Shown here: positions 36,876 through 55,352 of the stretch, in pieces
Layout of the letters: every line of letters starts with the position of its first letter
Numbering within the stretch: the stretch's first letter is position 1
From: an uncultured Methylomirabilota bacterium
GTDB taxonomy: Bacteria; Methylomirabilota; Methylomirabilia; Methylomirabilales; 2-02-FULL-66-22
Direction: 5' to 3'
Assembly: GCA_963705305.1 (NCBI GenBank)
Contig: OY970067.1
Span: 4,128,001 to 4,192,000 of the forward strand
DNA length: 64,000 bases
Position numbers and translations under genes: made by a program
The notes under the pieces: model-generated
The model's database searches: none
What the model saw: only the letters and a program-made list of their open reading frames with translations
Told to the model about the DNA's origin: nothing

Positions 36876-36989
36876 ACGACACCCCACGGCTGGAGGCCCC
36901 CGGACAAGGCATAGTCAAGCGGCCTTGCGGCGTCCCGAAATGGCGAGGCGAGGCCGAATTTATGCCCGTCTCTGCATCTCTCTCCACAT

Positions 36990-37177
36990 GTTGGCAGTTG
37001 GCAGAGTTGGCAACAGGGGGTCCTATAGACCCCCTTGTGTTGCCACAAACTCATTTTCACGCTGCCACCAGCTTTATTCATTTCTGCGTAACCCATCAGA
37101 ATTCATACAGTTGGCAGTTGCCACAACTCCCCCTTGCCAGCTTGCCAACTCATAGGAATGCCGCTTGCGAGTTGGCA
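36990..37177. other. Putative replication origin with iterons
   Basis: About ten GTTGGCA/TTGCCA copies in both orientations, hairpin GGGGGTC-ctata-GACCCCC and an AT-rich core, just downstream of the helicase. Confidence 0.65.
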
Positions 37178-38604
37178 ACGACTTCCAAGGGCTTCCGCTG
37201 CCCATGATCCGTGAGCTTCTTCTCCCGGATCGCGGAGGCCGTGGCGTCCCTGGCCGTCCTGTCGGAACACCCGAACCGCTTGGACACCTCTGCGTAGAAG
37301 TCCAGGCGCTTGCCGGTCCAGACCCCGTTCAGTTCCTCACTCATCCACGCCACCAGGGCCGCAGTAGAACACAAGGTCTCGGCCTCATCCACGGGGCGGA
37401 ACACCAGGGTTTCCTTATCCAGTTCGAGCGTCAGAGGCTCTTTCCACCTCGGCGCGAAATTCGTCTTGACCAGGTTCAGCCGATAGAGGTTTGGACCGTT
37501 CTTGGATTGCTCCCGTAGGGCCAGCTCGAAATCGGCCCAGGCCCGGAGGGCCGTGGTCCCCCGACCGCGGGCGTCGTCCCCATCGGGGGCCCATCCGGCA
37601 TGATGGACGACCAGCAGCGCCGCTCCCGCCTGCCGGCAGACTTCCCGGAGCGGCACCAGCCACCGCATCATCTCCGAGCTGCTGTTCTCCTCCGCCTCGT
37701 GGAGGTACACCAGCGGATCGAAGAGCACCACGTCAACCAGGGCATGCCGACTGAGCGTCACGCCCAACCGCTTCAGGGCGCCGTCCAGCGGTCGGCCTTT
37801 CGGGCCGCCGAACCGCATGGGCTCCCGCCGCGTAAACAGGATGATGTTCTCCGGGATCTCTGCCCCGGCCAGCATCATCCGTAACCGCTCCTGCACCATG
37901 CCCGGGGCGTCCTCCACCTGGAACACCAGAACCCGCAGGGGGCGCGCCGCTGGCATCGCCTGACCCAGGGGCAACGGGAAGCCGGTCCAATGGAGCGCCA
38001 AGTTGAGACCACAGACGCTCTTGCCGTGGCCGCCTGCCCCGGTCAGGAGGCCCACGCCTACTTCCGTCAGGCCAAGGGACGGCACCAACCGGACGGCGCC
38101 AGCGAACGAGGTCCGCATGAATTCCGGGCCCGGCAACACCTCATAGGGCTGGATCTCCTCCTGCCGTTTTTCGAGTTTCCCTCGCGTACCAGGGCCGGGC
38201 ACTTCGGCTGCTGCGTCCACCGTCGTCTCCTCGCCGTGGTCGACGTCTTCCCGTTGTGCTTCCTCTCGCCCCTTGGCCCAGGCCCGGAGGGTCTTCTGCA
38301 GCTTGGTCTGATGGAGTTTCTTTTTCCCAGGTCGGCTGTAGAGGTCACAGAGTAGCCACGTCGCATCTTCGACCGAGAGTCCGGCATGCCCTGCGTGGTA
38401 GGCCAGCGCATAGGCGCGCTCGCTGTCGCTGGAGTAGCCGTCGCGCGTGCCGTCCCAGGTCTCCCGCAAGCGGGCGTTGCCCTTGAGCACGCGCTCCCCA
38501 CGCTCCGACAACTTCTCCGGCCGCTCGGGAGCGTTCACGTCGGGCCGCGCCTCATCGGCCTCCGTCCAGGGGATGCTGTCGAATTCCGTTAGATCGTAGG
38601 CCAT
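37150..38604 (-). CDS. RepA/AAA_25-type (RecA-fold) replicative helicase with N-terminal primase-accessory helical domain
   Basis: GAGGHGKS, QVED, VLFDP, EENSS, LVVHHA, ARG; N-terminal SDSERAYALA. Confidence 0.82.
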   Translation of the reverse strand: MAYDLTEFDSIPWTEADEARPDVNAPERPEKLSERGERVLKGNARLRETWDGTRDGYSSDSERAYALAYHAGHAGLSVEDATWLLCDLYSRPGKKKLHQTKLQKTLRAWAKGREEAQREDVDHGEETTVDAAAEVPGPGTRGKLEKRQEEIQPYEVLPGPEFMRTSFAGAVRLVPSLGLTEVGVGLLTGAGGHGKSVCGLNLALHWTGFPLPLGQAMPAARPLRVLVFQVEDAPGMVQERLRMMLAGAEIPENIILFTRREPMRFGGPKGRPLDGALKRLGVTLSRHALVDVVLFDPLVYLHEAEENSSSEMMRWLVPLREVCRQAGAALLVVHHAGWAPDGDDARGRGTTALRAWADFELALREQSKNGPNLYRLNLVKTNFAPRWKEPLTLELDKETLVFRPVDEAETLCSTAALVAWMSEELNGVWTGKRLDFYAEVSKRFGCSDRTARDATASAIREKKLTDHGQRKPLEVVANSQAAFL

Positions 38605-39182
38605 GAAACCAGCCTCACTTGACAGTCAGGATACTTGTGATTAAAGGTGCCCGGGATCCGAAGCACCCGGCTCCGATCGGTCGCCGCGGGGTCGGCCTCG
38701 AGGGCGCACACAATACCCTTGAGCCGCCCCTCGAATGCCTCATCGGCATGTACGGCCTGCTTGAGCTGCCAGTAGACGTGGTATCCACCTCCGGTGGCGA
38801 CGATCCAAGTCGGAGGCAAGGGGAATTCTCCCAGCTTCCGGAGGGCCCCCGCCTCGCCGTCCGAGAATCGCTTGAAGTCCAGGTCAGCCCATAAGCCGGG
38901 GGCATGCGTCACGCTGGTCTTGTCCCCTTGTGGCCGGATGCGAGGGCATACGCCGAAGTAACAGTCGTACTCCTCCACCAACTCACAGGCTCGCCAGTAG
39001 AGCTCGCGGGTCGCGCCCAGGGTGAAAAATTCCTGGTGGACGGCCTTGTCAGTAACGCGGATCGCGCGGAGCTTGAGGAGTTGATCAGCGGGGCAGGCGG
39101 CAAACCAGGATTCGAGAAACGTGGTCGGCCGCGGCGGGAGAGCGGTCTTGGTTGTGAGCAGGGGGACGGTCGCCGTACTCAT
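38589..39182 (-). CDS. RepB-like (AEP superfamily) DNA primase
   Basis: YFGVCPR, LWADLD, TGGGYHVYW, D..RVLRIPGTFNHK. Confidence 0.85.
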   Translation of the reverse strand: MSTATVPLLTTKTALPPRPTTFLESWFAACPADQLLKLRAIRVTDKAVHQEFFTLGATRELYWRACELVEEYDCYFGVCPRIRPQGDKTSVTHAPGLWADLDFKRFSDGEAGALRKLGEFPLPPTWIVATGGGYHVYWQLKQAVHADEAFEGRLKGIVCALEADPAATDRSRVLRIPGTFNHKYPDCQVRLVSWPTI

Positions 39183-39382
39183 CGGCCGCTCGCGACGGCT
39201 TCTTCGAGACGGAGTTTCTCCGCCGCCGCTTCGAGTACTGTGACTAAAACGCGGCGGGCATGTCTAGGGTCCTTCGCCAACAGACGTGCCCACTGAGGCG
39301 AGACGCCAAGGCGGGCGGCGTAGTCGATAGACTGCACGCCGAGCAGCCGGGCAAGTACCAGAGGGTCGGTAGTGGTTCGCAT
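39179..39382 (-). CDS. Small Cro/HTH-like protein
   Basis: YAARLGVSPQWARLL; ATGA overlap with the primase gene. Confidence 0.55.
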   Translation of the reverse strand: MRTTTDPLVLARLLGVQSIDYAARLGVSPQWARLLAKDPRHARRVLVTVLEAAAEKLRLEEAVASGR

Positions 39383-39386
39383 GCCG

Positions 39387-39412
39387 CAAGGGTAGAGACA
39401 CTCCTACCCTTG
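39387..39412 (-). promoter_or_regulatory. Inverted repeat (operator) over the promoter of the replication operon
   Basis: CAAGGGTAG-N8-CTACCCTTG; TACCCT lies 6 nt before ATG 39382. Confidence 0.5.
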
Positions 39413-39442
39413 GAGCAATCCCTTGGAAATTGCGCTCAGTTT

Positions 39443-40241
39443 CTATTTTCCAGATTTTTTGCGGGAGAGACGGAGGCCCACCGCGTTCAGGTAGCGAATC
39501 TTTCCGCGGAGGCGCTCCCGGGCTTTCGGGTCGGAGGGAATCGTTACGCTGAGGATCTTTCGGGCGACCTGCCACACGTCCATGCCGTCCTGTGTGCCCT
39601 GATATACACGTCGCGCGAGTTCTGGATCAACTTGCGACTTGCCAGACTTCGGGGGCTTCGCTTGTCCCTTCGGACGTTCCTGGGGCTCGCGCGGGTAGTC
39701 GAGCGCTCTCTAGACTGGCAATCTCCAGCCAATGCTTGCGCGTGGGCATTTCGCCGGCTGGCACCTCATAGCGAAACGCACCGGTGATGCGGTCCTCGGT
39801 GATACGAATCGGATTGTCGGGGAGGGGAGTGCCGACCGTCACGGATTTCGGCACTCTCCGAGCCGCTCGGCGGAGACGTTCCCTCATTCCCTCATCTGTG
39901 GCCTCTTTTTCCAGGATGGCCAACGCCGCCTGCTGAGGTAGGAGAGGGCGATCCTCACAGACCCGATGAAACTTCGGGACGTACTCTTTGATGCGATCAA
40001 GTAGGAGCCAGGACAATTCAGCAAGCCGGTCCACTGGCTCGGGCCCCAACGCTTCCCATCGGGGTTCGAGTTTTCGCACGAGCTTATAGACCGGATGGTC
40101 ACACAAATTGAGATGCTCGGCCAGGGCGGCGGCGAAATAGTAGAAATGGCTTCTGACCTGTGGATGCTGCGTAAGCTCTAGAGCCAACTCTGCCGGCCGG
40201 ATAACCGTTCTGTCCAGAAACTTTGTTTGTCTGAGAACCAT
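39443..40241 (-). CDS. Hypothetical regulator-like protein (probable frameshift near 39700)
   Basis: ORF 39627-40241 continues in another frame as ...VDPELARRVYQGTQDGMDVWQVARKIL...LRGKIRYL..* (HTH-like). Confidence 0.5.
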
Positions 40242-40859: not shown

Positions 40860-41312
40860 TCAGGCGAGGTGCTCGCCCCGGTTGCGGCCTTCGGCCGCCA
40901 GCAAGCGCTGCACGGTGGTTTTCAGCAGGACCAGGGTGGCCTCCGGGTAGCGGAGCAGGAACGCGCGGAATCGCTGGTAATCGAGGCAGAGCAGCACCAC
41001 GTCGGTCGCCGCCTGGAGGGTGGCGGTGCGGGCCATATTCGAGAACATGCCATATTCGCCCAGCAGCTCTCCCCGCTCGACGGTCCGCACCGGCCGGGAT
41101 TGCCCCGGCAATACGACGTTAAGCATGCCGCTGGCCACGACATAGACACTGCCGGAGACCTCGCCCGCCTCGAACAGGATCTCTGATTCCCGCAAATGCT
41201 CCGTCCGCATCATTTCCGCGAGGGTGGCAAGCTCCGCCGGCGGAACGCCCGTGAACACCGGGCAGGCGCCCAGGACACTGGTCTTTTCGGCCATGCTCAG
41301 GGTGGTTCTCAT
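40860..41312 (-). CDS. Stand-alone cyclic-nucleotide-binding domain protein
   Basis: LFEAGE..YVVASG, GELLGEYG...RTAT; no HTH; ATGA overlap with the ABC stop. Confidence 0.87.
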   Translation of the reverse strand: MRTTLSMAEKTSVLGACPVFTGVPPAELATLAEMMRTEHLRESEILFEAGEVSGSVYVVASGMLNVVLPGQSRPVRTVERGELLGEYGMFSNMARTATLQAATDVVLLCLDYQRFRAFLLRYPEATLVLLKTTVQRLLAAEGRNRGEHLA

Positions 41313-43855
41313 GCTCGCTGAAGCGTGGTGCGGAAGATCTCCGACGCTTCCTCCAGCTCCTGGAACGTGCCGCTGGCCGCCAGCCGGCCGCCATGCATGA
41401 GCTTGATGTCGTCCGCCTCGCGGATGAAATTCAGATCGTGGCTGACGGTGATGACGATCCTGTCTCGCCTCCACTGCCGCAGCAGCTCGGCAACCGCGCT
41501 GCGGCTGGCAGGGTCGAGAGCCGATGTCGGCTCGTCCAGCACCACGATCGGTGTGCGGCGCAAGAGCGCGCGGCAGAGCGCCACCGTCTGGCCCTGACCG
41601 CCGGAGAGGTTGCTGCCCAGCCGCCCGACCTCGCACTCCAGGCCGAGCCGTGTCAGGCAGTCGTTCAACCCCGCCTGTTCGACAAAGCCCAGCAGGCTTT
41701 GATCCAGGAGGCGGCTCGCCCGAGTATTGGGGACCTCCACGACGCCAAAGATCAAATTCTCCCGCCAGGTCAAGCCGGGGTGCACCTCGTCGGCGACAAA
41801 GGGGCGCCAGGCACCCGCCAGGAGCTGCTGCAGCAGCTCGATATCAGCGGCAAACACCTTGCGGGTTTCGGGCGCTCGCAAGGCCTCCACACCTCCATCG
41901 CTCGCTAATTCGGCTAAAGAGCTAGTCAGGCCGATCAGCAACAGCGACAATCCTTGCTTGGGCGACACGGCGGGTTTGTCAGCCAGATCCACGCAGGATG
42001 ATCGCAGCTTCCACAAGGGCTCGCTTACCGAGAAGGGAGAGAGCTGCGCATACACGTGGTAATTGGAGATACTGAGCAGGTGCCGGTTCTCGCGCAGCAG
42101 GCTCTTTCCCAGCGCCATCAGCGCCGAGCGGCTGCCGTTTGGCGGCAGGCGTTCCAGCCGGCGGGCGGCTTTCTTGCTTAACAGCAGCTCCACGCACTTG
42201 GCCCGCTCGCAGCGGCCGCCCAGCAGGCATTCCAGCACCCAGTGCTGCGAGTCCACGCTGCCGTGCTCGAAGGGCAAGACCAGAGCCTGGCACTCGTCCC
42301 GCAGGCGCTGGCGAAGGCTATTCCGCAGCTCGCCGATGCGCGCGGCGATCGCAGGCTGCGCGCCGCCTTCACCCGCCGGCATGTCCAGGGCCTTCAGCCG
42401 GCAAATCTTGCCCAAGCCTGCCCGCTCGACCACCTCCATGTCGGCGGCGGAAAGGGGGATCTCGCCTTCGGTCTGTCCAAAGTAGAGGTTTTCGCGGATC
42501 GTCGTATTCAAGAGGGCCACGGATTGCGGCATGATTGAGAAGAGGGCTGCGCGCCGTCGGTCATCGATCGCCTGGAACGGGAGGGATCCGTAGCGGACGT
42601 CGCCTTCCTGCGCTTTCAGGCGCCCCAGCACCAGTTTCAGCAGGGTGGATTTGCCGGAGCCCGCGCCGCCCACGATGGCGGTCCAGCGATCCGGACTGAA
42701 CACGGTGCTGACGCCGGCCACGCCGCCTTGTTGCGTGCCATCGGGGCTGGTATAGCGATAGGTGACGTTGTCCAGGGTGATCGGCTCGGCCGCCCCCTCC
42801 TGAACTGCCGAGTCTGCCGAGCTACCAGTCTCGACGCTCTGAGTCTCGTACTCAAGGAGCCGGTCCAAACTGACGCGCGCAATCTGGAAATCCAGGCGCA
42901 GGAAGACCAGCTCCGAAGATTCGCTGAACAGCGAGGGCAAGCGCAGCACGATCACCGGCACCAGGGCGAGAGAAAGACCGCTGATCCCCCCGCTCCGCAT
43001 CTGATATACCACCACGATCATAGACGCAAACGCCAGCAGGTACGCGACCGTATTTCTAATCCGCAGAGCCCCGTTGAGCCCGATGTACTTGAGAAACGTC
43101 CTGCTCCGGTCCTCCAGAAGCTGCAGGAACCGTCGCCGGATGTTCTCGTACGCATTTGAAACCTGAACTTCGGGCGCGGCCCGCAGCAGATCCTCGAAGC
43201 GTGACTTAATTCTGTCATCCTGGACGAGATAGTTCTGGTCCATGTTGGCCACTGGTTTGGTCGTTCGCAGCGTCCAAAGAACTCCGACAAGACAGGTCGC
43301 AATGGCCACGAGCGCCAGCCGCCAGTCCTTGAGAAAGAAGAAGACCAGATTGCCGGCCACCAGCAGCGAGCTCCACCAGACCTTGGTTACTCCGAGGCGG
43401 CGCTCACTTACTCGAGAGAGGTCCACGGCCAGCCGGTTCACCATTTCCGCCGGAGAATGACGGCTGAAAAAGGAGTCCTCTTTTCGCAGCAGGTGGAGCA
43501 GGATTTCCGTCTCCAGATCGTCCTTGGTGCGAATGGCGAGCTTGCCGCCGAGACGGGCTCTCCAGAACTCCACCGCGCCCGACGTGAGCCGGGCAGCCAC
43601 GAACAGGCCCAGAAGCAGGAAGGGCAGGCTGATTGCCAGCGAATCGGCGAGCGTGTGCGAAAGTGCCGCCAGGCCGTGCTGGGCAGCGGCAGCCGGCGCT
43701 TGCCCTTGGCCCAGCGATTGCGTCAGCAGGTCGAGCAGATCGTTCTCAACGTAAACAAGCACAGATGCCAGGCTGCCGGCAAGGATCAAGGAGATCAGCG
43801 CCGCACGGTAACGCGGGTGCCAGAGGGCGAACCAGGAAGCCAGCCCCGATTTCAT
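41309..43855 (-). CDS. Fused ABC exporter (TMD+NBD) with large insertion in the NBD
   Basis: TM helices; GGAGSGKST; RENLYFG...RENLIFG; LSGGQ; LDEPTSALD; VSH. Confidence 0.88.
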   Translation of the reverse strand: MKSGLASWFALWHPRYRAALISLILAGSLASVLVYVENDLLDLLTQSLGQGQAPAAAAQHGLAALSHTLADSLAISLPFLLLGLFVAARLTSGAVEFWRARLGGKLAIRTKDDLETEILLHLLRKEDSFFSRHSPAEMVNRLAVDLSRVSERRLGVTKVWWSSLLVAGNLVFFFLKDWRLALVAIATCLVGVLWTLRTTKPVANMDQNYLVQDDRIKSRFEDLLRAAPEVQVSNAYENIRRRFLQLLEDRSRTFLKYIGLNGALRIRNTVAYLLAFASMIVVVYQMRSGGISGLSLALVPVIVLRLPSLFSESSELVFLRLDFQIARVSLDRLLEYETQSVETGSSADSAVQEGAAEPITLDNVTYRYTSPDGTQQGGVAGVSTVFSPDRWTAIVGGAGSGKSTLLKLVLGRLKAQEGDVRYGSLPFQAIDDRRRAALFSIMPQSVALLNTTIRENLYFGQTEGEIPLSAADMEVVERAGLGKICRLKALDMPAGEGGAQPAIAARIGELRNSLRQRLRDECQALVLPFEHGSVDSQHWVLECLLGGRCERAKCVELLLSKKAARRLERLPPNGSRSALMALGKSLLRENRHLLSISNYHVYAQLSPFSVSEPLWKLRSSCVDLADKPAVSPKQGLSLLLIGLTSSLAELASDGGVEALRAPETRKVFAADIELLQQLLAGAWRPFVADEVHPGLTWRENLIFGVVEVPNTRASRLLDQSLLGFVEQAGLNDCLTRLGLECEVGRLGSNLSGGQGQTVALCRALLRRTPIVVLDEPTSALDPASRSAVAELLRQWRRDRIVITVSHDLNFIREADDIKLMHGGRLAASGTFQELEEASEIFRTTLQRA

Positions 43856-45231
43856 GCGCGGACACCCTTTAGCCGAACCTTTTCAGTGATGACCCGTAAC
43901 ACTCCTGATTGTACGCTCTCGGAGGCGAGAGCACGGTCGCGGATGCGGTCGCGCAGCTGTTGCAGGAAGGACTCGCAGTATCGCATTGCGTCGAATTGCT
44001 CAGGTTGAAACCGATGCAGGTGCGGACATCCGCCCCCACAGCCGGGGAGTGCGGGGCATTCCGCGCAGCGCTTGTACTGCAACCAGTCGTACATCAGCCA
44101 TGGGACCAGGTTGGCCAAGTTCGTCGGCGTGCCGGTCTCCACCGAGCCGTAGCTTCGCTCCGCCAGTCCGACGTCCTCCGGGCATTTGTACAGCAAACCG
44201 TCCGGTCCGATCACCATGGAGTGGCGTGTTGTGGCGCCGCATCCGATCGGCTCGGGCCGGCACACGTCATCGACAGGCAGGCGCCTCGCTGTGGCCCGGC
44301 GCCGCTCGCGCGTGCTCGCCTGCGCGTAGATCAGATAGGGCATGGCGGTAAACCGGCATCCGCGCGGCCCGCACTCGGGTACAAGAACGTAGGCAAAATG
44401 AATCTTCTGGAGATGCTGGTGCAGCTTGCGTCGGATCAGCGCGTCATACAGCCGGTCGAACCCCGCCGGCTCATCGCGTCCCAGGTTAATCCGCAAACGT
44501 ATGGGAATTCTTCTGGCCGCAAACGCCAGGTTGTCCAAAACCAATTCCGCCGTGGCACGACCGCGCCGGTCGCGCTTTTCAGCCGCGGGAATATCCACGG
44601 TTACCTGGATGTATGTCAACTCGCACGTTTCCAGCCTGCTGACCACGTCGCGACTCAGCAGCGTGCCATTGGTCACCAGCGTTGCGGAGTAGCTCATACC
44701 GGCGTGCTTGCACGCGGGAATCAGCAGCGAGCTGACCCGGGAGATTGTTTTGATCGCAAGGAGCGGCTCTCCGCCGAACCAGCAGACGTTTATGGCCCTC
44801 TTGCCGCTGGCAGCGGTGGCGATATGCTGCACAACCTGGTTTTCCCGCTCCGCGGTCCAGGCCCGTGCCGCCCTGGAAGCTTGAGCGGCACCTTCAAAGC
44901 AGTAGCTGCAGCGCAAGTTGCAGGCCAGCGTCGGAACGAGCGTCACCCCGAGACTGGAGTCGCTGAATTGTCCAGACAGGTAGTGCAGCCGAACGAGATC
45001 AAGCTCATCGACATCCCGGGGAACGAGAAAACCGTGCGACTGGAGAAAGGCCAGACCCTCAGCGGCCTCGGCCTGATCGCAGTCCAACTGGCGGCCGGAA
45101 GCGAGATACTGCGACCATGTTTCCTCCGCGAGTACCACCAACGCCCCGGTGAAGGTGTTGAGGATCGCTTTGCGGTGGCGTGGCAGATCAACCGCCAGAT
45201 TGAATCGCGATGGAGCCCAGACCTGCGACAC
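43852..45231 (-). CDS. Radical SAM/SPASM peptide maturase with N-terminal RRE-like region
   Basis: PSRFN...LNTFTGAL; CNLRCSYC; WFGGEPLL; CGA..GPDGLLYKC; CAECPALPGCGGGC; GTG 45231 after AAGGAAGG. Confidence 0.88.
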   Translation of the reverse strand: MSQVWAPSRFNLAVDLPRHRKAILNTFTGALVVLAEETWSQYLASGRQLDCDQAEAAEGLAFLQSHGFLVPRDVDELDLVRLHYLSGQFSDSSLGVTLVPTLACNLRCSYCFEGAAQASRAARAWTAERENQVVQHIATAASGKRAINVCWFGGEPLLAIKTISRVSSLLIPACKHAGMSYSATLVTNGTLLSRDVVSRLETCELTYIQVTVDIPAAEKRDRRGRATAELVLDNLAFAARRIPIRLRINLGRDEPAGFDRLYDALIRRKLHQHLQKIHFAYVLVPECGPRGCRFTAMPYLIYAQASTRERRRATARRLPVDDVCRPEPIGCGATTRHSMVIGPDGLLYKCPEDVGLAERSYGSVETGTPTNLANLVPWLMYDWLQYKRCAECPALPGCGGGCPHLHRFQPEQFDAMRYCESFLQQLRDRIRDRALASESVQSGVLRVITEKVRLKGVRA

Positions 45232-45655
45232 GAATTTCCTTCCTTTGCCGGGACCGTCTCTTGGGCCTTGCCGAAATGGCGACACGGTCACGGCTCCGGC
45301 CCCTCCCGAGTGGACGTCGCCACGAGCCTCCGCACCTCTGACGCCCGGGCGCGGGAGCTGGGCGGGGCGCCCTCCAGCGTGAGAAGCTCGCGCCAAGTCT
45401 GCGAGATCGCGGGGGGTGGTGTGGCGCCAAACGGGTTCGGGGGAATCGAGGTCGGGCGCGCAGGGCAGTAGCCGCTCCACGACACTGCGGCAGGGCTTGG
45501 CCACCCAGGCGGGAGCACACAGATCCTGCTACGGGCGGTGCCGGTCACCGGCGGGGGTAAAGCCGGGGACGGCAGGGAACCGCCGATAGACGACCATTCC
45601 GCAGCATGAAACCCAGCCGCCGGACCAACGGGGTTAACCCGACCCTCTGAAAGCG

Positions 45656-45862
45656 TCAGCCCCTGACTCCGCCGATCGCCGCAAAACCGCAGCCCTGTCC
45701 TTCAACGTCGCCCTTCTTCTTCTTGGGTGCGCGCAGCACCTTGGCGAGATCAGCGACCGACGCCGACTTTTTCACCTGCAGGTCTGTTCCTTCCGGAAAC
45801 ACCAAACTCACTCGGTTCTTGCCCTCAACCACCACTTTCACGCCCTCGGCTTTCTTCACCAT
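45656..45862 (-). CDS. Candidate RiPP precursor peptide (68 aa)
   Basis: Strong SD AAAGGAG; Lys/Val-rich leader and Gly-rich tail GDVEGQGCGFAAIGGVRG; lies between two rSAM genes. Confidence 0.65.
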   Translation of the reverse strand: MVKKAEGVKVVVEGKNRVSLVFPEGTDLQVKKSASVADLAKVLRAPKKKKGDVEGQGCGFAAIGGVRG

Positions 45863-46050
45863 TGCTGTCGCTCCTTTGATTGATCTCGCCCCCGGCGCCT
45901 ATGATCACGGAGACGGCGGCCGCCGCGGGCACCCGCCCGGCGGTCTAGACCCTCCGGCCCGCTGAATCGCCGCAACTGGTAGCACATAACCCCGGATAAA
46001 ACAACAGAAATTCCCTCCTCGGCATCCCTTCGGCCGGCGGTGTTCCGCTT

Positions 46051-47436
46051 TCACCCGCCGTCCGCAAAGAGGGAGCGGATACGATCCAGGGCCTCGGGGT
46101 GAAAGCGGTACAGGAACCTGTGGGTGATGGAGGCGCGGGCAAACTGGGCCCGCATCAAGTCGCACCAGAGCTTCTGCATGGGGTCGCTGCGGCCCGAAGG
46201 CAGCAGAGCGCACTTCTGGCATTGAAACGCGCATCCCCCTCCGCACCAGGCGAAAGCCCAGCAGCGGGCGCACTCTTCATCTGCCGGCCGCACCCTCGGC
46301 ATCGGCAGTGGGGCGCTGGCGTCCAAGGTTTCGCAGTCTCCCAGCGCCGGCACGTCCGCCCTTCCATACAGACTGGGGCAAGGATATACGCTTCCGTGGG
46401 CATCGATGTAGATTTCCCGCCGCCCGCAGCCGCACAGCCCGTCCGGACCTTTCGGTTGGGATGAAATCTGCGCCGCGAAACGCATGTCCACCTCCGGACT
46501 GCCCTCAATCGCGGATTGGACGAAGTATCGGTAAAACTTCGCGCGCTGCAGCATGAGCTCCCGCAGATCGGATTTCGACCACGGGCTGGAATCATTCGCC
46601 CCGGCGGTCAGATACAGGAAGCTGATGCGGCGAAACCCGCGAGTCCGAAGCTCCTTGGCAATGGCAGTCAGATCGGAATTGCCCGGGGTAAGGACGACCT
46701 GCGCATCCACCCTGGCATCCTTGCTCGCCGCGCGCAGCCGCCGCATCCCGCTCAGGGCCGCCTGGTAGGAGCCGGCCCCATCCGGATAGCGGCGGTGCCG
46801 GTCGTGGCCATCCTGCAGCCCGTCAATGCTGATCTGGACGGTCAGGTCCGGCGCCACCAGGTCTTTCGCGAGGGCATCCGTGATCAGGGTGCCATTGGTC
46901 CCGATGCTGAAATGCGGACTCTTGCCCAGCCGGCGGGCCTTGCGGCGGACGGTATTGACCAGAAAGCGGCCGACGGACCAGTTCGCCAGCGGCTCGCCGC
47001 CGAGGAAGGAAATCAGCGGCCTGTCCACGGGGACCGCCAAAATGTAGTCGGCAATGCGCTCGGCCGTCGGCCGATCCAGACGGCTGGAGGGTGCGCAATT
47101 GGCCGAATCAAAGCAATAATCGCAGGCCAGATTACAGCGGCCGGACAGCCGCACCATGAAGGTGTGCGGCCACTGGTGCCCCGACTCGCGCTGTTTCGGC
47201 CGCGTCCTTGGTAGGCCGCCGAGTCCCTGGAGAAAGAAGATTTCCGGCTGCTCGACGGCAAATGCGAGGATGGCCTCTTGGAGCTCCTCCGCTGCGCGCT
47301 GCTCCGGCTGTGCGGCACGCACCTGCCGGCATGCGGGACCCGACGTGCCGTTTCGAATACCCCGAGCCTTTGGTGTGCGGTCTGCCGGTGCCACGCAGGA
47401 CCCTCGCGTCTCCGGACCCGCGTTCCCTTCTCTCAT
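46051..47436 (-). CDS. Radical SAM/SPASM protein (anSME/thioether-maturase-like)
   Basis: CNLACDYC; FLGGEPL; SIDG..HDRHR; CGCG..GSVYPC; CARCWAFAWCGGGC. Confidence 0.87.
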   Translation of the reverse strand: MREGNAGPETRGSCVAPADRTPKARGIRNGTSGPACRQVRAAQPEQRAAEELQEAILAFAVEQPEIFFLQGLGGLPRTRPKQRESGHQWPHTFMVRLSGRCNLACDYCFDSANCAPSSRLDRPTAERIADYILAVPVDRPLISFLGGEPLANWSVGRFLVNTVRRKARRLGKSPHFSIGTNGTLITDALAKDLVAPDLTVQISIDGLQDGHDRHRRYPDGAGSYQAALSGMRRLRAASKDARVDAQVVLTPGNSDLTAIAKELRTRGFRRISFLYLTAGANDSSPWSKSDLRELMLQRAKFYRYFVQSAIEGSPEVDMRFAAQISSQPKGPDGLCGCGRREIYIDAHGSVYPCPSLYGRADVPALGDCETLDASAPLPMPRVRPADEECARCWAFAWCGGGCAFQCQKCALLPSGRSDPMQKLWCDLMRAQFARASITHRFLYRFHPEALDRIRSLFADGG

Positions 47437-47601: not shown

Positions 47602-48267
47602 ATGGCGCCAAAGATCGCGGTACTGCAGGCCTATCTCGGGATTTCGTCTCAGAGCGAGGAGGGCGCGATCCTCCGGCTGCTGATCGAACTGGTGGCCCAA
47701 TGCGTGGGGGCGCAGGAGGGCTCTCTCCTGGTGTTCGATGAAAAGAAGAATGACCTGGTATTTGCCATGACGGTTGGCGACACGTCGTCGGAAAAGGTCC
47801 TGGTCGGCCAGCGGGTTCCGCTGGGACAGGGGATCACCGGGCTGGCGGCGCAGCTGCGCGAGGTGCAGATCGGGGCACCGACCTTCAAGACGCGTCAGGC
47901 CAAGCACCGCGGGGGAGCCCCTCAAGAGCCGCAAGCGGTGCTGGCAGCGCCCATGCTGGTTTCCGACCGGCTGATCGGCGTGCTGACGGCAGTCAGCTTC
48001 GCGCCAGGGAAACGGTTCACCAGCGGCGACGCGCTCTTGTACGGCCGCCTGGCCGCGGTCGCCGGAGTCGTGGTGGATCAGGCGCACCGGCTGCGGGCCG
48101 TCACCGCCCTGCAGCGCGGGCAGCGTCCGCCTGGGGGGATCGGCCGGGCGCTGCGGCTCGAGAACGCCATCGTCGATGCCGTCACGCGGTTGACTCGCTC
48201 GCGGCCGCACGCCAAGAGCGACATTGCCAGGCTGCTGACGGCCGTGGCTGACCTGCTCGAGCCGTAA
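47602..48267 (+). CDS. Stand-alone GAF-domain protein
   Basis: GSLLVFDE..LVF; VPLGQGITG; LAAPML..LIGVL. Confidence 0.82.
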   Translation: MAPKIAVLQAYLGISSQSEEGAILRLLIELVAQCVGAQEGSLLVFDEKKNDLVFAMTVGDTSSEKVLVGQRVPLGQGITGLAAQLREVQIGAPTFKTRQAKHRGGAPQEPQAVLAAPMLVSDRLIGVLTAVSFAPGKRFTSGDALLYGRLAAVAGVVVDQAHRLRAVTALQRGQRPPGGIGRALRLENAIVDAVTRLTRSRPHAKSDIARLLTAVADLLEP

Positions 48268-48278
48268 TCGGGGGAGAC

Positions 48279-49040
48279 GTGGCCGCCCGGACGCTGTTGC
48301 ATATCCTCAAGGCGGGATTCAGGGACCTCAGGCGGCGCAGGCGGGAGCCGGTCACGGTGGCCGTCGTGGATAGCGGCATCGACGGCACTCACCCGCAGCT
48401 GGCGGGGCGGATCGTTCGGGCTGTCCAGGTCACCCCGCAGGGCAGGCAGCAGCGGGTCATCGAGAGCCCTGTGCCGAGCAACCAGGATGTCTACGGTCAC
48501 GGCACCGCCGTCGCCAGCATCATCTGCAAGCTTGCACCCAACGCCAGAATCCTCGACGTGCGCGTGCTCGACGCCGAGAACGTGTGTACTGGAGACACGC
48601 TGATCGCGGGCTTTCGCTGGGCGGTCGAGTCCAGGGCCCGGATTATCAACATGAGCCTGGCGGCCAACGCCCGGTTCGCCGCGGCGCTGCGCCAACTCTG
48701 CGATGCCGCCTACCGTCAGAACCAGCTCGTCGTCGCCGCGCGGCGCAACATGCCGCTCACCGACCAGGGCTTTCCCGCCGAGGTGGCCACCTGCATCGGG
48801 GTGGATATTAAGAAGTTGCGGTCGCAATTCGAGCTTATATTTCAGGACAACCACATTATCGAGTTTGCGGCCCATGGCGAGGGAGTGGTGGTGGCTGCAG
48901 CTGGCGGCGGTCACACCACGATGACGGGGACCAGCTTTGCCACGCCCGCGGTGAGCGGCCTGTGTGCGCTGCTGGTGGGCGCGTACCCCGATCTCCGGCC
49001 GTTCGAGGTGAAGAGCGTGCTGCGCGCCTTCGCCGTGTGA
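48279..49040 (+). CDS. Minimal cytoplasmic S8 (subtilisin-like) serine peptidase
   Basis: Catalytic triad DSGID / HGTAVA / GTSFATP; no signal peptide or prodomain. Confidence 0.9.
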   Translation: MAARTLLHILKAGFRDLRRRRREPVTVAVVDSGIDGTHPQLAGRIVRAVQVTPQGRQQRVIESPVPSNQDVYGHGTAVASIICKLAPNARILDVRVLDAENVCTGDTLIAGFRWAVESRARIINMSLAANARFAAALRQLCDAAYRQNQLVVAARRNMPLTDQGFPAEVATCIGVDIKKLRSQFELIFQDNHIIEFAAHGEGVVVAAAGGGHTTMTGTSFATPAVSGLCALLVGAYPDLRPFEVKSVLRAFAV

Positions 49041-49097: not shown

Positions 49098-49838
49098 ATG
49101 GCGTGCTCTGCCAAGCTGGAGTTGGATCCGAAGAACTTCTTCCGTCTCTCCAACGGACGCCTGCTGACGGCCCCGCCGGAAATCCCGTTCAGGGAAATGT
49201 TCTCCGAGATCGTCGAATCGGGCTGTTACCTGCCTTCGGCCGAATTTCGGATCGGGGCAGGGGAAATCGTGCTTGATATCGGGGCGAACGTCGGCCTGTT
49301 CTCGATGTGGGTCGCCCTGAACGTCCCGTCGGCGAGAGTCTACGCATTCGAGGCTGCCTCCGACAATTATCTGGCGCTGGCCGAGAACGTCCGGAGCAAT
49401 CACCTGACAAGCGTCTCGGTCCACCATTACGCTGTGTCGGACGGCGGCAGCTCCCGGGTAACCCTCTACCGCGGATACCATGGCGGGATTCATTCCATCT
49501 GCCCGGAGTACCGGAATTGGCCTGCTTCGGCGAAAAGGGAGCGCCGGACGGAGAAAGTCCGTGCCATCACGCTGTCGCAGATCTTGCGGCGATTTCAGAT
49601 CGAGCGCGTCGATTTTCTGAAGCTGGGTTGCGAAGGGGCCGAATACGAGATTCTCTTCTCGGCGTCGCGGGCAACGCTCTCGCGGATTCGAAGGATCGTC
49701 GGCGAGTACCACGACCTGGACGCCGAGCGGCACGGAGGAGTCCTGAAGGCGTTCCTGACGCAGAACGGATTTCACACCGCTTTCAAGGCGGCCGGGCGGG
49801 GGAGGCCATGGGGAATATTCGCGGCGCTTTCCCGCTGA
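49098..49838 (+). CDS. FkbM-family methyltransferase
   Basis: LDIGANVGLFS, VYAFE, KLGCEGAEYEIL, GEYH. Confidence 0.85.
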   Translation: MACSAKLELDPKNFFRLSNGRLLTAPPEIPFREMFSEIVESGCYLPSAEFRIGAGEIVLDIGANVGLFSMWVALNVPSARVYAFEAASDNYLALAENVRSNHLTSVSVHHYAVSDGGSSRVTLYRGYHGGIHSICPEYRNWPASAKRERRTEKVRAITLSQILRRFQIERVDFLKLGCEGAEYEILFSASRATLSRIRRIVGEYHDLDAERHGGVLKAFLTQNGFHTAFKAAGRGRPWGIFAALSR

Positions 49839-49873: not shown

Positions 49874-51637
49874 ATGATACATTCGATCGTACTGCCGGGG
49901 CGCTTCCCGACCACGTTCTACGCCTATCCGGAGTTCACCCTCCTCACCCGGCGGGTTCACGAAGAGGTCTGCTTCGAGAACCTCAATCTCCTCTTTTGGG
50001 ATTACCTGTTCTCCGCGGATTTCCTGGGATTCCTGCGGCGCCATCTCGGTCCGGCATCCTCCCCGCACTTCGACTTCCTGTCGGCCGTCATCGACTCCGG
50101 CACCATGGCCACGCTCCGCGACCGGAAATTGTTCTATGACGCGGAGCGATACCTGGCTGCCATCTTCTGCCTCGGCGGTTACCTGGGAGCGGCCTCCGAT
50201 CTCCTGCGGCAGATCAGCGGAGGCACCTTGCAGGGGATCTCGCTCTATGGCGTGAGCTACGACACGCGGCGCCCCCTCGGAGAGGTGCTGGCCTATGCCG
50301 GAAGCGACCGCAACCCCTTCATGGATTTTTGCCGGACGCGGCCGGAGCCGATCCGGGAGATCTTCGATGCGGATATCGTCAGCGCCGTGACCTACAATTA
50401 CACCGATTTCCTGCATCTGGGTGTCCTGAGCGAGCGGTACCGGCGGCCCGGCACCAGCGTGTTCGTCCATGGCCACAGCTGGGAGAACAACGCCGTCGAC
50501 TACCTGATCGAACACGCCGGCCGGTATGCCGAGTTCCTCCGGCACATCGACGGCATCGTTCTTGGGGAGGATGACCTCGCCGAGACGTTCAACCGGCTTG
50601 CCGAGGCGGGAGCGACGTCGGGAGTCCACAATCTCTACCGGTTCGGGGACGACCCACCTTCCGACCGCAGCAGCCGGGGCCGGCGGCGCAATCCTCTTGA
50701 TGACCTCGATTTCATCCGCTTGCGCCAGGAGGCGGAGCGGCAGCGCAGCAAGATATTCTCTCCCGAGCTGGTGACCCTGTACCGCCTCTCCGCGCGGGGC
50801 TGCTACTGGAGCCAATGCGCCTTCTGTCGGCACAACAGCCGGCACCCCGGGGGCCCTGACCGTCGGGATCAGCAGGCGGAGGATCCAACCCTGTGGCCCG
50901 TCAGGATGCGCCGGCTTTCCGCCATCTCCCCCGTCCTTGTCTTCTGCGACCAGGGAATCGATCCGGAAGTGGCGGCGGCACTGGCTGCCGCACCCCGGGA
51001 TGCCGACGGCGGGACCACCTGGTCGCTTCGGACGCGAATCGATCCCCGCTGGGATGCCCGCCGTATCGCGACGGTGGCCCGCGGGGGGTGCGCCGAGCTG
51101 ATCTTGGGGATGGAGTCCGTCAACGACGAGACGCTGCGGCGGATGCGCAAGACTCCGCTGGGCGGAGAGGCATACCGTTCCCTGGTAAGGCAGATCCACC
51201 GCGAGTCCGTCTCCTGCGGCATATACAACCATTACTGCATGATCTATGGCTACCCGGGCGAGACCTATGAAGAATGCCGACAGACCCTCGGCTTCCTCGC
51301 GGACCTCGTCCGCAGCGCTCCCAAGACGACCTTCAGCCTGAACCGGTTCCAGCTCTTGTTCAAGTCGGACATCTACAATTCTCCCGAGGCGTATGGGATA
51401 CGCTCGGTGACCAAGGCCCCCTTCCTGTCCAACGCGTTTTGGTATGATGAGCCCGCCAGCACACGCAGCATCGAGCTGGTGGAAAATGGGCAGAGTGACT
51501 TCTATCGGGCAATAGGCTACCGCGAAGATATCCTGACCAACCGGATACTTCTGGAGACGGTTTCAGCCTTCATCAACGACAGCGGCCACGCGCCGCTGCT
51601 CAAAGCCGGCCACCCGAGAAATCCGTTCGTGGCGTAG
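49874..51637 (+). CDS. Radical SAM protein of B12-binding/methyltransferase-like type
   Basis: RGCYWSQCAFC (CX4CX2C), LGMES..LRRMRK, YGYPGET. Confidence 0.75.
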   Translation: MIHSIVLPGRFPTTFYAYPEFTLLTRRVHEEVCFENLNLLFWDYLFSADFLGFLRRHLGPASSPHFDFLSAVIDSGTMATLRDRKLFYDAERYLAAIFCLGGYLGAASDLLRQISGGTLQGISLYGVSYDTRRPLGEVLAYAGSDRNPFMDFCRTRPEPIREIFDADIVSAVTYNYTDFLHLGVLSERYRRPGTSVFVHGHSWENNAVDYLIEHAGRYAEFLRHIDGIVLGEDDLAETFNRLAEAGATSGVHNLYRFGDDPPSDRSSRGRRRNPLDDLDFIRLRQEAERQRSKIFSPELVTLYRLSARGCYWSQCAFCRHNSRHPGGPDRRDQQAEDPTLWPVRMRRLSAISPVLVFCDQGIDPEVAAALAAAPRDADGGTTWSLRTRIDPRWDARRIATVARGGCAELILGMESVNDETLRRMRKTPLGGEAYRSLVRQIHRESVSCGIYNHYCMIYGYPGETYEECRQTLGFLADLVRSAPKTTFSLNRFQLLFKSDIYNSPEAYGIRSVTKAPFLSNAFWYDEPASTRSIELVENGQSDFYRAIGYREDILTNRILLETVSAFINDSGHAPLLKAGHPRNPFVA

Positions 51638-51666: not shown

Positions 51667-52965
51667 TCACGGCGAGCGCTCGGTCCCTCGGAACGGGCGC
51701 GCGGCAGTCCCCGGCGTCCCGCCGGGCCGGACCGAGATCCGGGGACGGATTCGCGAGAGCTCCCTCAAGAAGATCAGGCCGCTGAGAAGACACACCCCGC
51801 CCCCCAGGGCGATCGTAGCCGGGGTGCCGATGCGACCGGCGAGAGCGCCCGAACACAGATTGCCCAGCGGCACGGTGCCCATGAAGGACAAGGCGAAAAG
51901 GCTCATCACCCGGCCCCGCTTATCCGCATCGGCAATCATCAGGAGAATGGTGTTGCTGGAGGCCATGATCAGCGTGATCCCGCAGCCGACCATGACGAGG
52001 AGCGCCACCGAGAGGCTGAGCGAGGGCGACAGGGAAAATAGGATGAGTCCGAGGCCGAACAGGCCGGCCCCCAGCACGATCGTCCGATCCAGCCCGAACC
52101 CGGTGCGCCGAGACCCCAGCCAGGCGGCGCCCAGAAGCGCCCCCATGCCGATGGATGCGACCAGGATGCCCAGGGTGTGGGGTCCCCCCTTCAGCACCGT
52201 GGCCGCCATGATCGGCATCAGGACGCCGTACGGGCTGCCGGCGAAGCATATGCACCCAACAAAGAGGAGGACGGCCCGGATCGGGGGAGAAGCGCACACA
52301 TAACGGATCCCCTCGACAAGCGTGGGAAGGACCGGCCCGGATGGGGTCTCTGCGCTTCCCGCCGAATGCCGCAGGGCGAGGAGGGCACCCAGGATGGCGA
52401 GGTAGCTGACCCCATTCGCCAGAAAGCACACCCCTTCGCCCCCCCAGGCAATGACCATCCCGCCCAGCGCGGGGCCGATCAGACGGGCGGAGTCATACAC
52501 CAGGGAGTGCAGGGCGATGGCGCTGGCCAGCTGCTCCCGGCTTTCCACGAGATGCGCGAGCAGCACCTGGCGGGCTGGGGCATCGATGCCGTTGAGGATT
52601 CCGAGGACGCAGCTCAGGCAGAGAATGATAGGAACGTCGAGGCGGCCGGCAAAGACGAGCAGTGCCAGCAGGACAGCCTGCAGCATGGCAAGCGATTGGG
52701 TCGCCAGCATGATCCGGTGCGGACGCACCCGATCGGCGAGGACGCCGGCGAGCAGGGCGGCTGGCACAGCGGGGAGTTCGCCCACGAACCCTACCAGCCC
52801 GAGGATGAGTGCCGAGTGGGTCAGCCGGTACACCAGCCAGCTCATTGCCACCATTTGCAGGAAAGTCCCGATCAGGGAGGGGGCCTGTCCTGCGATGAAG
52901 AGGCGGTAGTTTCTCGATCGGAGGGCCGGCCAGCCCCGCATCAGCGCTCCCCATAAGTCACACAT
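51667..52965 (-). CDS. MFS exporter (H+ antiporter/MFS_3-like)
   Basis: ALRSRNYRLF, GVLADR, DAPARQ, RGRVMS. Confidence 0.9.
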   Translation of the reverse strand: MCDLWGALMRGWPALRSRNYRLFIAGQAPSLIGTFLQMVAMSWLVYRLTHSALILGLVGFVGELPAVPAALLAGVLADRVRPHRIMLATQSLAMLQAVLLALLVFAGRLDVPIILCLSCVLGILNGIDAPARQVLLAHLVESREQLASAIALHSLVYDSARLIGPALGGMVIAWGGEGVCFLANGVSYLAILGALLALRHSAGSAETPSGPVLPTLVEGIRYVCASPPIRAVLLFVGCICFAGSPYGVLMPIMAATVLKGGPHTLGILVASIGMGALLGAAWLGSRRTGFGLDRTIVLGAGLFGLGLILFSLSPSLSLSVALLVMVGCGITLIMASSNTILLMIADADKRGRVMSLFALSFMGTVPLGNLCSGALAGRIGTPATIALGGGVCLLSGLIFLRELSRIRPRISVRPGGTPGTAARPFRGTERSP

Positions 52966-53097
52966 TGTCACCGCCTCTGTCGCGCGGGTGGAATGAACGT
53001 GTGAAAAGCCACGCCCGTATGCTATCATTCACGAGTTTGAAGCCAATCAATATTTCTGACCTGGCATCATCCATTGCGCCGTCGACGCCGGGTGGCC

Positions 53098-54198
53098 ATG
53101 CCCCGCAAGCTGCTCCTGGTTCATCACTTCCCCCTGCCGCGCGTCAGCGGCGTCACCGTGATGGTGTCCGACCTCTTGCAGCTGATCCCTGCCGTCGATT
53201 CCGGCACGTGCGCCGCCTACCAGAGCTTCGAGGGGCTGCGCACGCCCGCCGATCTCACCGAGTCGCTCGACTCGCGCTATCCGGACGCCGGTTGCGTCGT
53301 GGGCGTGAACCTTCATATCGAAGTGCAATGGGAGCTGAGCCTCGCGCTGTTCGAATGGTGCGAGCGCCGCGGCGTCCCCGCCTATGTCTACGTCCACGAC
53401 TACTGGCCTCATCATCGCGAGAATCTCCGCCTCCTGGCCGGCCGCTGCGGCGCCCGCCTTCTCGCCGCCACACCCTTCATTCTCGAGACGCTCGGGCAGG
53501 ACGCCTTCGAGGCGACGCTGGTCATGGTGGGCGTGCCGCTGGGGGACGATCTCCCCGCGGGGAGAGCCCTCTGGCCGTCCCCATTTCCCCGCCTCGTGGC
53601 GTCGGGTGGTCGCCTGGTGCCCCGCAAGCGTTTTCCCGACATCGTGCGCGCCTTCTGCCAGGCGCGGCTCGACGGCGCCGCCCGTCTCTACCTCAGGCTC
53701 CTGCCCAGTCTCGTCTACCCACCGGATGAGGACGACGAGCAGTTTCGTCGGCTGGAGGCCGAGGTGCGGGCGGGATGCGAGGGGTGCATTCATCTTCACC
53801 GCGTGATGATGGGACCGCTCGACTACGACGCGTATTCCGCCTACGTGTGCGCCTCCGGCTACGAGGGCTTCAGCATGACCCCCATCGAGGCGGCCCGTCG
53901 TGCCTGTCCCCCCATCATGTCGGATATCCCCGCCCACCGCGCGATCGCCGGCGCGCTGTTCGGCGATTCGGCCGCGGAGTTTCTCTATCCGATGGGCGAT
54001 CACCGGGCGCTCGCCGAACTGCTCCGGGACGAAATTGCGACCGGCTGGAGGCGGACGTTCCTGGCGGGCCGCCTCCAGGAGATGCGGGCGACGATCGAAT
54101 CGCGCTGGTCACTCCGGACCACCGCGCGAATGCTGGCGTTTCTGTCGCATGGCACTCGGTCGGCGGCCGCGACGGGCTCCTCCGGCGACCCCGCGTGA
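53098..54198 (+). CDS. GT4 glycosyltransferase
   Basis: GRLVPRKR, EGFSMTPIEA...SDIP. Confidence 0.8.
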   Translation: MPRKLLLVHHFPLPRVSGVTVMVSDLLQLIPAVDSGTCAAYQSFEGLRTPADLTESLDSRYPDAGCVVGVNLHIEVQWELSLALFEWCERRGVPAYVYVHDYWPHHRENLRLLAGRCGARLLAATPFILETLGQDAFEATLVMVGVPLGDDLPAGRALWPSPFPRLVASGGRLVPRKRFPDIVRAFCQARLDGAARLYLRLLPSLVYPPDEDDEQFRRLEAEVRAGCEGCIHLHRVMMGPLDYDAYSAYVCASGYEGFSMTPIEAARRACPPIMSDIPAHRAIAGALFGDSAAEFLYPMGDHRALAELLRDEIATGWRRTFLAGRLQEMRATIESRWSLRTTARMLAFLSHGTRSAAATGSSGDPA

Positions 54199-54232
54199 GG
54201 GGCGGTCGACGGAGGCGGCTGGAGACGGATCG

Positions 54233-55342
54233 GTGAGGGTGCTTTTTCTGCATCAGTTCGACCTCAACTTCGCCGGAGGCTCCGGGATCTACCTGCGGGC
54301 GCTCTGCAGCGCCCTCACCGGCCTCGGGCACCGCGTGGAAGTCGTCTCAGCCCGCCGGCCCGATCAATACGGTCTGACGGCCTACCAGCTTCCGTTCGAC
54401 TTCACGCTGTCCTTCGGCCCCGAAAAGCGCGACGGCGAGCGGACGCTGGACGAGCTGGGGACGGCCGATCTGCAGACATTGGCGGCGCGCGCGGCCGCCG
54501 CGCTCGAAGCCGAAGCGTTCGGCGACGGCCGGCCCGATTTGATCCTGGTCAATCACATCAACCTGATGGCGCAGGTGGGCTGGCGGCTCGGGAAGACGTT
54601 CGGCGTGCCCTACCGCATCATCAGCTACGGCACCGATACCAATCTGCTGCTGAGGGACGAGAGGTATGTGGGCCTCTTCCTCGAGGCGGCCTGCAACGCC
54701 GAGCGCATCTTCGCCATCAGTGGCTTTGTCGCGAGGGATATCGCCGCGACCATACCCGGCGGGAACATCCAGGTGCTGGGAGGGGCCGTAGACGAAGCGT
54801 TGTTCTACCCGTCGGAGACACTGCCGGACGGCTTGGGCAAGATTGCCTACGTCGGTCGCCTGGTGACCGAGAAGGGGATCTGGGCGCTCCTGGAGGCGTT
54901 CCAGATACAGCGCGCGGCCAGCGAGCTGCGCGTGGCAGGGGAGGGGCCGCTCCGGAGCGCGCTGGAAGCGTACCTGGCACACTCGGAACTTCGTGAGCGG
55001 GTGAGCCTTCTCGGGTACGTTCAGCCCAGCCGGCTCCGCGAGCTCCTGATCGATTCGGCGCTGCTTGTCGTGCCGTCCACGTGGCAGGAACCTTTGGGGC
55101 TGGTCGTGCTGGAGGCCATGGCCTGCGGGATCCCGGTGGTGGCCAGCGATGTGGGCGGCATTCCGGAGATGATCCGGCATGGGGTCGACGGATACCTGGT
55201 GCCGCCTGGGGACGCGAATGCCCTGGCGGCGGCAATCGACCGGATCCTTGGCGATCGCGCGCTCTACGACAGGATGCGACGCAGCCTTCGCCGGTTGACC
55301 ATCCCATCCTATCGCGACGTGGCGCGAAGGGCGATCGAATAG
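54233..55342 (+). CDS. GT4 glycosyltransferase
   Basis: GRLVTEKG, EPLGLVVLEAMACGIPVVASDVGG. Confidence 0.9.
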   Translation: MRVLFLHQFDLNFAGGSGIYLRALCSALTGLGHRVEVVSARRPDQYGLTAYQLPFDFTLSFGPEKRDGERTLDELGTADLQTLAARAAAALEAEAFGDGRPDLILVNHINLMAQVGWRLGKTFGVPYRIISYGTDTNLLLRDERYVGLFLEAACNAERIFAISGFVARDIAATIPGGNIQVLGGAVDEALFYPSETLPDGLGKIAYVGRLVTEKGIWALLEAFQIQRAASELRVAGEGPLRSALEAYLAHSELRERVSLLGYVQPSRLRELLIDSALLVVPSTWQEPLGLVVLEAMACGIPVVASDVGGIPEMIRHGVDGYLVPPGDANALAAAIDRILGDRALYDRMRRSLRRLTIPSYRDVARRAIE

Positions 55343-55352
55343 GCGGGGCAGG

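Follow-up and report, generated by a model that had tools for sequence, protein, structure and literature searches.

The question raised by this locus is whether a short open reading frame lying between two genes for radical SAM/SPASM enzymes encodes a RiPP precursor and, if so, which of its residues would be modified. The window, the whole stretch of 64,000 nucleotides that was analysed, comes from a genome of the NC10 group (Methylomirabilota), in which the peptide gene is present in a single copy. The features of the locus are shown in Table 1. A strong Shine-Dalgarno site and a composition unlike that of shadow ORFs had been proposed for the gene, and both statements held. Of the 120 ORFs in the window that begin with ATG and encode 50-90 aa, 7 are preceded by AGGAG or GGAGG, the 68-aa ORF among them. 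The share of Arg and Pro was 0.07 in this ORF, the lowest among the seven and unlike that of shadow frames. The plus strand opposite the gene carries a different stop-free frame of 69 residues, from which a start codon is absent. In comparisons of five DNA copies of the peptide gene, the dN/dS of the leader was 0.07-0.19, and the last eight codons showed 0-1 non-synonymous and 1-3 synonymous changes per pair. The low leader dN/dS and the near absence of replacements in the last eight codons indicate that the 68-aa gene is real, translated and under selection. The gap between the peptide gene and the downstream radical SAM gene (window 45232-45655) measures about 420 bp, compared with 30-70 bp to the first start in relatives; it contained no repeat found elsewhere in the genome and no terminator-like site.

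Table 1. Positions of the peptide gene, its parts and the surrounding genes in the window
Feature	Position	Strand	Remark
Precursor-like gene, 68 aa	45656..45862	(-)	Sequence read 45862->45656
Shine-Dalgarno site AAAGGAG	45871..45877	(-)	8 nt 5' of ATG
Conserved leader, residues 1-56	45695..45862	(-)	From the family alignment; a low-confidence model predicts a beta-hairpin (9-13, 17-21) and a helix (36-43)
DVEGQ leader-end motif, family form [DE]VxGQ	45695..45709	(-)	GQ in 34/34 members
Predicted 12-aa core GCGFAAIGGVRG	45659..45694	(-)	Cys58 (GQ+2, 11 from the C-terminus) and conserved AIGGVRG tail
Downstream radical SAM enzyme	43852..45231	(-)	N-terminal RRE-type domain and seven-Cys SPASM; start as in P0056
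Upstream radical SAM/SPASM enzyme	46051..47436	(-)	PapB/QhpD/CteB-like below cut-off; start codon uncertain
Third radical SAM enzyme	49874..51637	(+)	Weakly like PhpK/TIGR03975 methyltransferases
FkbM-family methyltransferase	49098..49838	(+)	Conserved in the cassette
Compact subtilisin-like S8 protease, candidate leader peptidase	48279..49040	(+)	Best NCBIfam match QhpE
Stand-alone GAF-domain protein of the ABC-cNMP-GAF-S8 module	47602..48267	(+)	
ABC exporter (permease and ATPase)	41309..43855	(-)	Gene start overlaps the stop of the gene for the downstream enzyme
Protein with a cyclic-nucleotide-binding domain, same module	40860..41312	(-)	

A family of 34 sequences was assembled by a profile search of 1.84 billion representatives, which gave 19 matches, and by a second profile search. 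Three long proteins with partial matches of 24-30 residues (P0013, P0019 and P0022) were removed from the 19 before counting. Residues V8, F22, P23, L43, G55 and Q56 are invariant across the 34 members, and G14, N16 and V53 are found in 33 of them. In five close homologues, 81-91% identical, the leader and AIG[GA]VRG are conserved and the stretch between the two is variable. The tails that follow GQ are 11-28 aa long across the 34 members, differ widely and have little in common across clades. Since the family sets the boundary between leader and core after DVEGQ, the predicted core is 12 aa long and not 18 aa, and the leader would be cleaved after Gln56. The sequence does contain the K4 tract and the stretch of 18 aa in which Cys, Phe, Asp and Glu each occur once, as the preliminary description had remarked, but a role for Asp, Glu, Phe or the K4 tract finds no support: Asp and Glu both belong to the leader motif DVEGQ, position 60 (Phe60 here) is F, L, Y or P among close homologues, and Lys occupies the columns of the K4 tract in only 5-7 of the 34 members.

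Cys is present in 31 of the 34 members and lies at +1 or +2 after GQ in 27. [VIL]RG forms the C-terminal end in 15 members, in 11 of which the last Cys lies 11-13 residues from the end, and [AS]I[GA][GA]VRG is kept in 10. Conservation is thus not confined to the N-terminal fold, the pattern that had been named beforehand as the mark of an accessory protein. The members of a second large clade have CxxxC-type cores without RG. One cluster at 90% identity carries four different cores, and leaders more than 90% alike (P0029 and P0053-55) bear different cores. A conserved leader joined to a hypervariable core is the usual pattern of RiPP precursors. Two Cys-rich core types recur in a distant clade, CxWxHxCPPD and CxxxCxIWCDPF (P0024, P0030, P0031, P0034 and P0035; P0012, P0033, P0036 and P0037), and are apparently arranged in tandem on the same contigs (equal sizes 2784 and 3089).

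No precursor model in Pfam or NCBIfam matched any of the 22 family members scanned (E<=1), PADLOC did not assign the peptide to any meaningful family, and the ESM Atlas gave no match of at least 0.9 to it or to the second DVEGQ peptide described below. Phages gave no match for the peptide and plasmids gave none for P0020. The family, which lacks a name in Pfam and NCBIfam, is uncatalogued as judged by sequence. One locus from Oscillospiraceae (L002) was rejected as a chance match (family profile E 1.1). Precursors were absent from 80 loci on viral contigs that carry distant radical SAM genes (best E 0.043), and two plasmid loci of distant relatives of the downstream enzyme contained no family precursor.

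The preliminary description had placed two SPASM enzymes at the locus, and one was indeed found on each side of the peptide gene. That count fell short of the inventory: three radical SAM genes lie nearby, and the third one and the FkbM gene had been passed over although both travel with the peptide gene. The minus strand adds the ABC exporter and the cNMP-domain gene, and the plus strand carries, in this order, the genes for the GAF protein, the S8 protease, the FkbM methyltransferase and the third radical SAM enzyme. Genomic context was read directly from close NC10 loci alone (77-95% identical), and distant members were linked solely by equal longest-contig sizes. The third radical SAM gene, FkbM, the upstream radical SAM gene, the peptide gene and the downstream radical SAM gene occur together in L001, L003, L004 and G018 (76-91% identity), flanked by different genes. 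A further locus, L005, starts at the upstream radical SAM gene and stops after this gene, the peptide gene and the downstream radical SAM gene. Among 251 genomes of the phylum, the same 3 contained both the peptide and the upstream SPASM enzyme, and the third radical SAM enzyme was present in exactly the 3 peptide-bearing genomes among the 21 of the family; many genomes in both sets are incomplete. Precursors and downstream-type enzymes had equal longest-contig sizes in 5 of 22 cases, against 0.17 expected. These five coincidences include two distant subfamily pairs and one enzyme of the outer group, and distant precursors appear, on this indirect evidence, to share contigs with a downstream-type enzyme.

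The ABC, cNMP, GAF and S8 genes form one co-directional block in G008, G014 and G018, and in L003 and L004 the ABC gene is reduced to 52 codons, which directly follow the gene for the downstream enzyme. The gene order in the window would follow from one inversion in an operon of nine genes. Frameshifts split two genes of G018, those for the downstream and the third radical SAM enzyme (L011:17290-17411 and L012:5142-6903), which may reflect decay or assembly error. Just to the left of the cassette (window 35932-40241) lies a cluster of ORFs that, by eye, resembles a mobile element, with products like a primase, a helicase, an excisionase and DnaJ. After the cassette (window 51667-58427) lie genes for an MFS transporter, two GT4 glycosyltransferases and a DUF4062/NB-ARC/TPR protein, which are absent from the other loci examined.

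The conserved leader, the hypervariable cores, the near-identical leaders with different cores and the co-occurrence with the upstream SPASM enzyme support the claim that the peptide is a precursor, and the 68-aa gene very probably encodes one of the RiPP type. The opposing possibility is that it encodes an accessory partner, a small protein that serves the radical SAM enzymes as a folded chaperone or docking subunit, and that their true substrate is another molecule. The length of the conserved part (56 aa) and its predicted secondary structure would suit such a role. However, the AlphaFold model, a leader hairpin and helix, is of low confidence (pLDDT 59, pTM 0.30) and matched no PDB fold at E<=0.001, and precursors fit better with the hypervariable, Cys-patterned tails on near-identical leaders and with the sharing of DVEGQ by two unrelated small ORFs adjacent to radical SAM genes. 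We regard the accessory role as very unlikely.

The seven SPASM cysteines of the downstream enzyme are C331, C350, C389, C392, C398, C402 and C419. Its own subfamily comprises 60 proteins at 295 bits or more, with the next match at 165 bits, from sources named NC10 and also Verrucomicrobia and Alphaproteobacteria. The seven cysteines are kept in 59-60 of the 60 members, which leaves the AuxI site open. The alignment of its profile to CteB begins at residue 16 and includes the RRE. The model (pLDDT 91) has an RRE-type N-terminus of three strands and three helices, and its best fold matches were CteB and TigE. The best NCBIfam match was TIGR04463, at 183.3 bits against a cut-off of 525, and all matches of cassette enzymes to NCBIfam family HMMs were below the curated cut-offs. 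The PapB-type model NF047865 (cut-off 340) gave 156.9 and 90.3 bits for the cassette maturases.

The best matches of the upstream enzyme were PapB and QhpD, at 157 and 141 bits, respectively, both below cut-off, with CteB in the PDB. Only about 70-100 residues precede its cluster motif, an N-terminal stretch that is apparently too short to hold a complete RRE. Five close copies have extra Cys residues in the SPASM region, which may fill AuxI. The third radical SAM enzyme gave matches below cut-off to PhpK, HpnJ, TIGR03975 and ApyD, and Pfam gave no B12 domain for it. For the FkbM enzyme a precedent is offered by pythonamide, in which, according to excerpts of the report, the FkbM enzyme EreM N-methylates a RiPP backbone (PMC9259500).

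The S8 protease scored 107.7 bits against the QhpE model NF049966, below its cut-off of 165. QhpE removes the leader after radical-SAM cross-linking, as stated in part of the report on it (PMC7876137). In the source genome, the two best sub-threshold matches of the family profile were small ORFs with DVEGQG directly 5' of other SPASM-type genes. The first, a 60-aa ORF (G000:C1:3791125-3791307; L016:9125-9307) with a two-Cys tail and a leader unlike that of the peptide family, lies directly 5' of a gene for a compact, 331-aa radical SAM enzyme (best match TIGR04463 below cut-off). The other, a 75-aa ORF (G000:C1:2434026-2434253; L017:6026-6253) in which CCxRxANWC follows DVEGQG, lies 5' of genes for a SPASM enzyme and a B12-type radical SAM enzyme and is kept in 3 of the 21 family genomes (also G018 L037 and G014 L059). 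The DVEGQG pattern was found at 22 loci over the 21 genomes. At four of them it ends a short frame (three in the source genome and one in G018); a radical SAM motif adjoins all four and none of the other 18. S8 orthologues were present in 4 of the 21 genomes, exactly those with the 68-aa or the second DVEGQ precursor; they fall in three separate RecA lineages, a suggestive pattern that amounts to few events. The ABC-cNMP-GAF-S8 module may have another role, because in three relatives it lies elsewhere beside other genes. The four-gene block was seen at L054:8843-13356, L056:7000-11682 and L052, in two cases behind genes that by eye are TIR/WD40-repeat-like and RyR-domain-like. That the S8 protease cuts at DVEGQ has a chance that we put a little short of even.

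The preliminary description had reasoned that, with one Cys for two SPASM enzymes, at least one enzyme makes a non-thioether modification. Three of the 34 members (P0007, P0008 and P0021) have no Cys. The P0007 cluster is the most abundant close variant, and Cys was absent from 15 of 15 members among those listed. This Cys-free, Thr-containing variant, which has an RTP core, sits in L001 and L005 between intact copies of both SPASM genes. The family profile found no second precursor in G008, and the dN/dS of the downstream enzyme between the two Cys-free loci was 0.26. Thioether formation therefore cannot be the sole job of the downstream enzyme lineage. These homologues strengthen the earlier reasoning and fall short of proving it.

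The downstream enzymes of L001 and L005 are 92% identical to each other and 83-85% identical to those of the Cys-core loci L003 and G018, and the upstream enzyme groups in the opposite way; physical linkage could explain the grouping of the downstream enzyme by core type as well as co-evolution does. Position 352, two residues after the AuxI Cys350, is His beside RTP cores and Glu or Gln beside Cys cores. His352 occurs in 4 of the 60 subfamily enzymes, a small number, and for one of these, a distant member, the linked core is likewise of the RTP type. A Thr-based ether is formed by TqqB. PapB can join Cys to a C-terminal Gly in vitro, according to the excerpted report (PMC12373016), and on this account the invariant Gly at the end of the peptide is a candidate acceptor. 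One specific scheme would combine these observations: a single open-site SPASM lineage would close a lariat onto the C-terminal Gly of the ...G[VI]RG tail, giving a new RiPP class, with a donor switched between a Cys thioether (-11 to -13) and, in Cys-free loci, a Thr ether (-10, RTP cores). The switch would track the change from Glu/Gln to His two residues after the AuxI Cys, and DVEGQ would be a shared leader-end signal letting one QhpE-like protease serve several unrelated precursor families per genome. As a whole this scheme is speculative and we consider it improbable.

The explanation that we favour, and consider probable, is that the 68-residue peptide, made up of a leader of 56 residues with DVEGQ at its end and a tail of 12, serves as precursor to an undescribed radical-SAM RiPP; the neighbouring gene products would cross-link, methylate, cut off and export the tail. 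A beta-strand of the leader would dock on the RRE of the downstream enzyme, and this seven-Cys SPASM enzyme would bond the sulfur of Cys58 to a downstream carbon of the core, candidate acceptors being the invariant C-terminal Gly and the AIGG stretch. The upstream SPASM enzyme would make a Cys-independent change in AIGGVRG, such as a C-C link, an epimerisation or an oxidation. The third radical SAM enzyme would likely C-methylate Ile, Val or Arg, and FkbM would N- or O-methylate the core. The QhpE-like protease would cleave after DVEGQ and the ABC transporter would export the product. For thioether formation at Cys by the downstream enzyme in this locus, the analysis tips the balance slightly in favour.

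The same RiPP could instead carry only Cys-independent modifications of its AIGGVRG tail, for example epimerisation of Ile or Val, a C-C cross-link or oxidation of the C-terminal Gly. Consistent with this are the Cys-free cores beside intact, selected enzymes, the near invariance of the tail in DNA, and the case of ApyA, whose conserved Cys is unmodified but required, as stated in part of the preprint (bioRxiv 10.1101/2023.10.30.564719). Against these stand the seven-Cys SPASM that the downstream enzyme has in common with thioether formers and the Cys found throughout most of the family. Moreover, CxxxC cores without the RG tail appear, by coincidence of contig size, to pair with the same enzyme subfamily (P0012/P0030 with P0089). 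We consider the wholly Cys-independent chemistry rather unlikely. A cyclopropylglycine product would draw on the resemblance of AIGG/AVGG to the TVGG and TIGSVS motifs, where TvgB and TigE build cyclopropanes from Val or Ile, and on the place of TigE among the PDB matches. A GYW motif is strictly conserved in cyclopropyl synthases, according to the portion of the work describing them (PMC10878394), but it was found in none of the three cassette radical SAM enzymes and in none of 118 homologues of the downstream enzyme, and the motif is not repeated in the core. A cyclopropylglycine is accordingly a most improbable outcome.

The locus defines an uncatalogued precursor family and a matching radical SAM subfamily of 60 members from uncultured bacteria. 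It offers natural Cys and Cys-free substrate variants that adjoin enzymes 81-92% identical. The core, of 12-14 residues, is short enough to synthesise and can be used to probe sulfur-free chemistry by a seven-Cys SPASM enzyme of the 'thioether type' and the residues that decide it. Peptide engineering would also profit from a tolerant leader that bears very different cores and from a DVEGQ protease, possibly a shared one.

Searches of the open-licence literature, supplements aside (which may list such precursors), gave no description of this system or of DVEGQ, EVEGQ or DVEGH leader peptides. Among known enzymes, CrpC of methanogens, a member of the TIGR04463 family, forms thioethers according to the excerpted report (PMC13692751) and has, like the downstream enzyme, an RRE, a radical SAM domain and a seven-Cys SPASM. 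The Cys numbering is nearly identical: 104/108/111, 333/352/403 and 390/393/399/422 in CrpC and 104/108/111, 331/350/402 and 389/392/398/419 in the downstream enzyme, respectively. The CrpA/CrpC substrate described there is a large Cys-repeat protein, whereas the putative substrate here is a peptide of 68 aa whose single Cys is missing from some relatives, and the locus has extra enzymes. The ranthipeptide maturases PapB, CteB and QhpD (freyrasin, thermocellin and the QHNDH gamma subunit), with QhpE, resemble this system in the best matches of the upstream enzyme, the QhpE-like protease and the ABC exporter. In contrast to ranthipeptides, the core here has no Cys-x3-Asp/Glu and no acidic residue after Cys58, and Cys-free variants exist. 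The cyclopropylglycine RiPPs TvgA/B and TigB/E, as far as the cited portion (PMC10878394) describes them, share the Ile/Val-Gly-Gly-rich core and the RRE-SPASM fold and differ in having the GYW motif and a repeated core motif.

With proteusin-type systems, of which pythonamide is the example, the locus shares FkbM beside radical SAM enzymes, a core rich in Gly, Ala, Val and Ile, and a long structured leader (predicted here), whereas the core here is very short and the SPASM enzymes are of the thioether type. This reading was dropped because no NHLP or Nif11 leader model was among the NCBIfam and Pfam matches of the 22 family members (E<=1). The aminopyruvatides (ApyA/D/O/HI/S) likewise combine a radical SAM enzyme, Class-B-like there and possibly so here, with a methyltransferase and have one conserved Cys beside the leader. 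They were set aside, as no MNIO or P450 was found among the 15 ORFs scanned in the cluster here and the C-terminus is Gly and not Asp. Triceptides, which contain three-residue cyclophanes, have a conserved aromatic residue in an aromatic-X-X motif; this class was dropped on account of the variability at Phe60. The locus has the general features of radical-SAM RiPP systems, namely a short ORF with a conserved leader and a variable core and a co-located, co-occurring SPASM maturase with an RRE. From sequence comparison, the system lacks features that define membership of the ranthipeptide and CrpC systems, yet is predicted to work like them.
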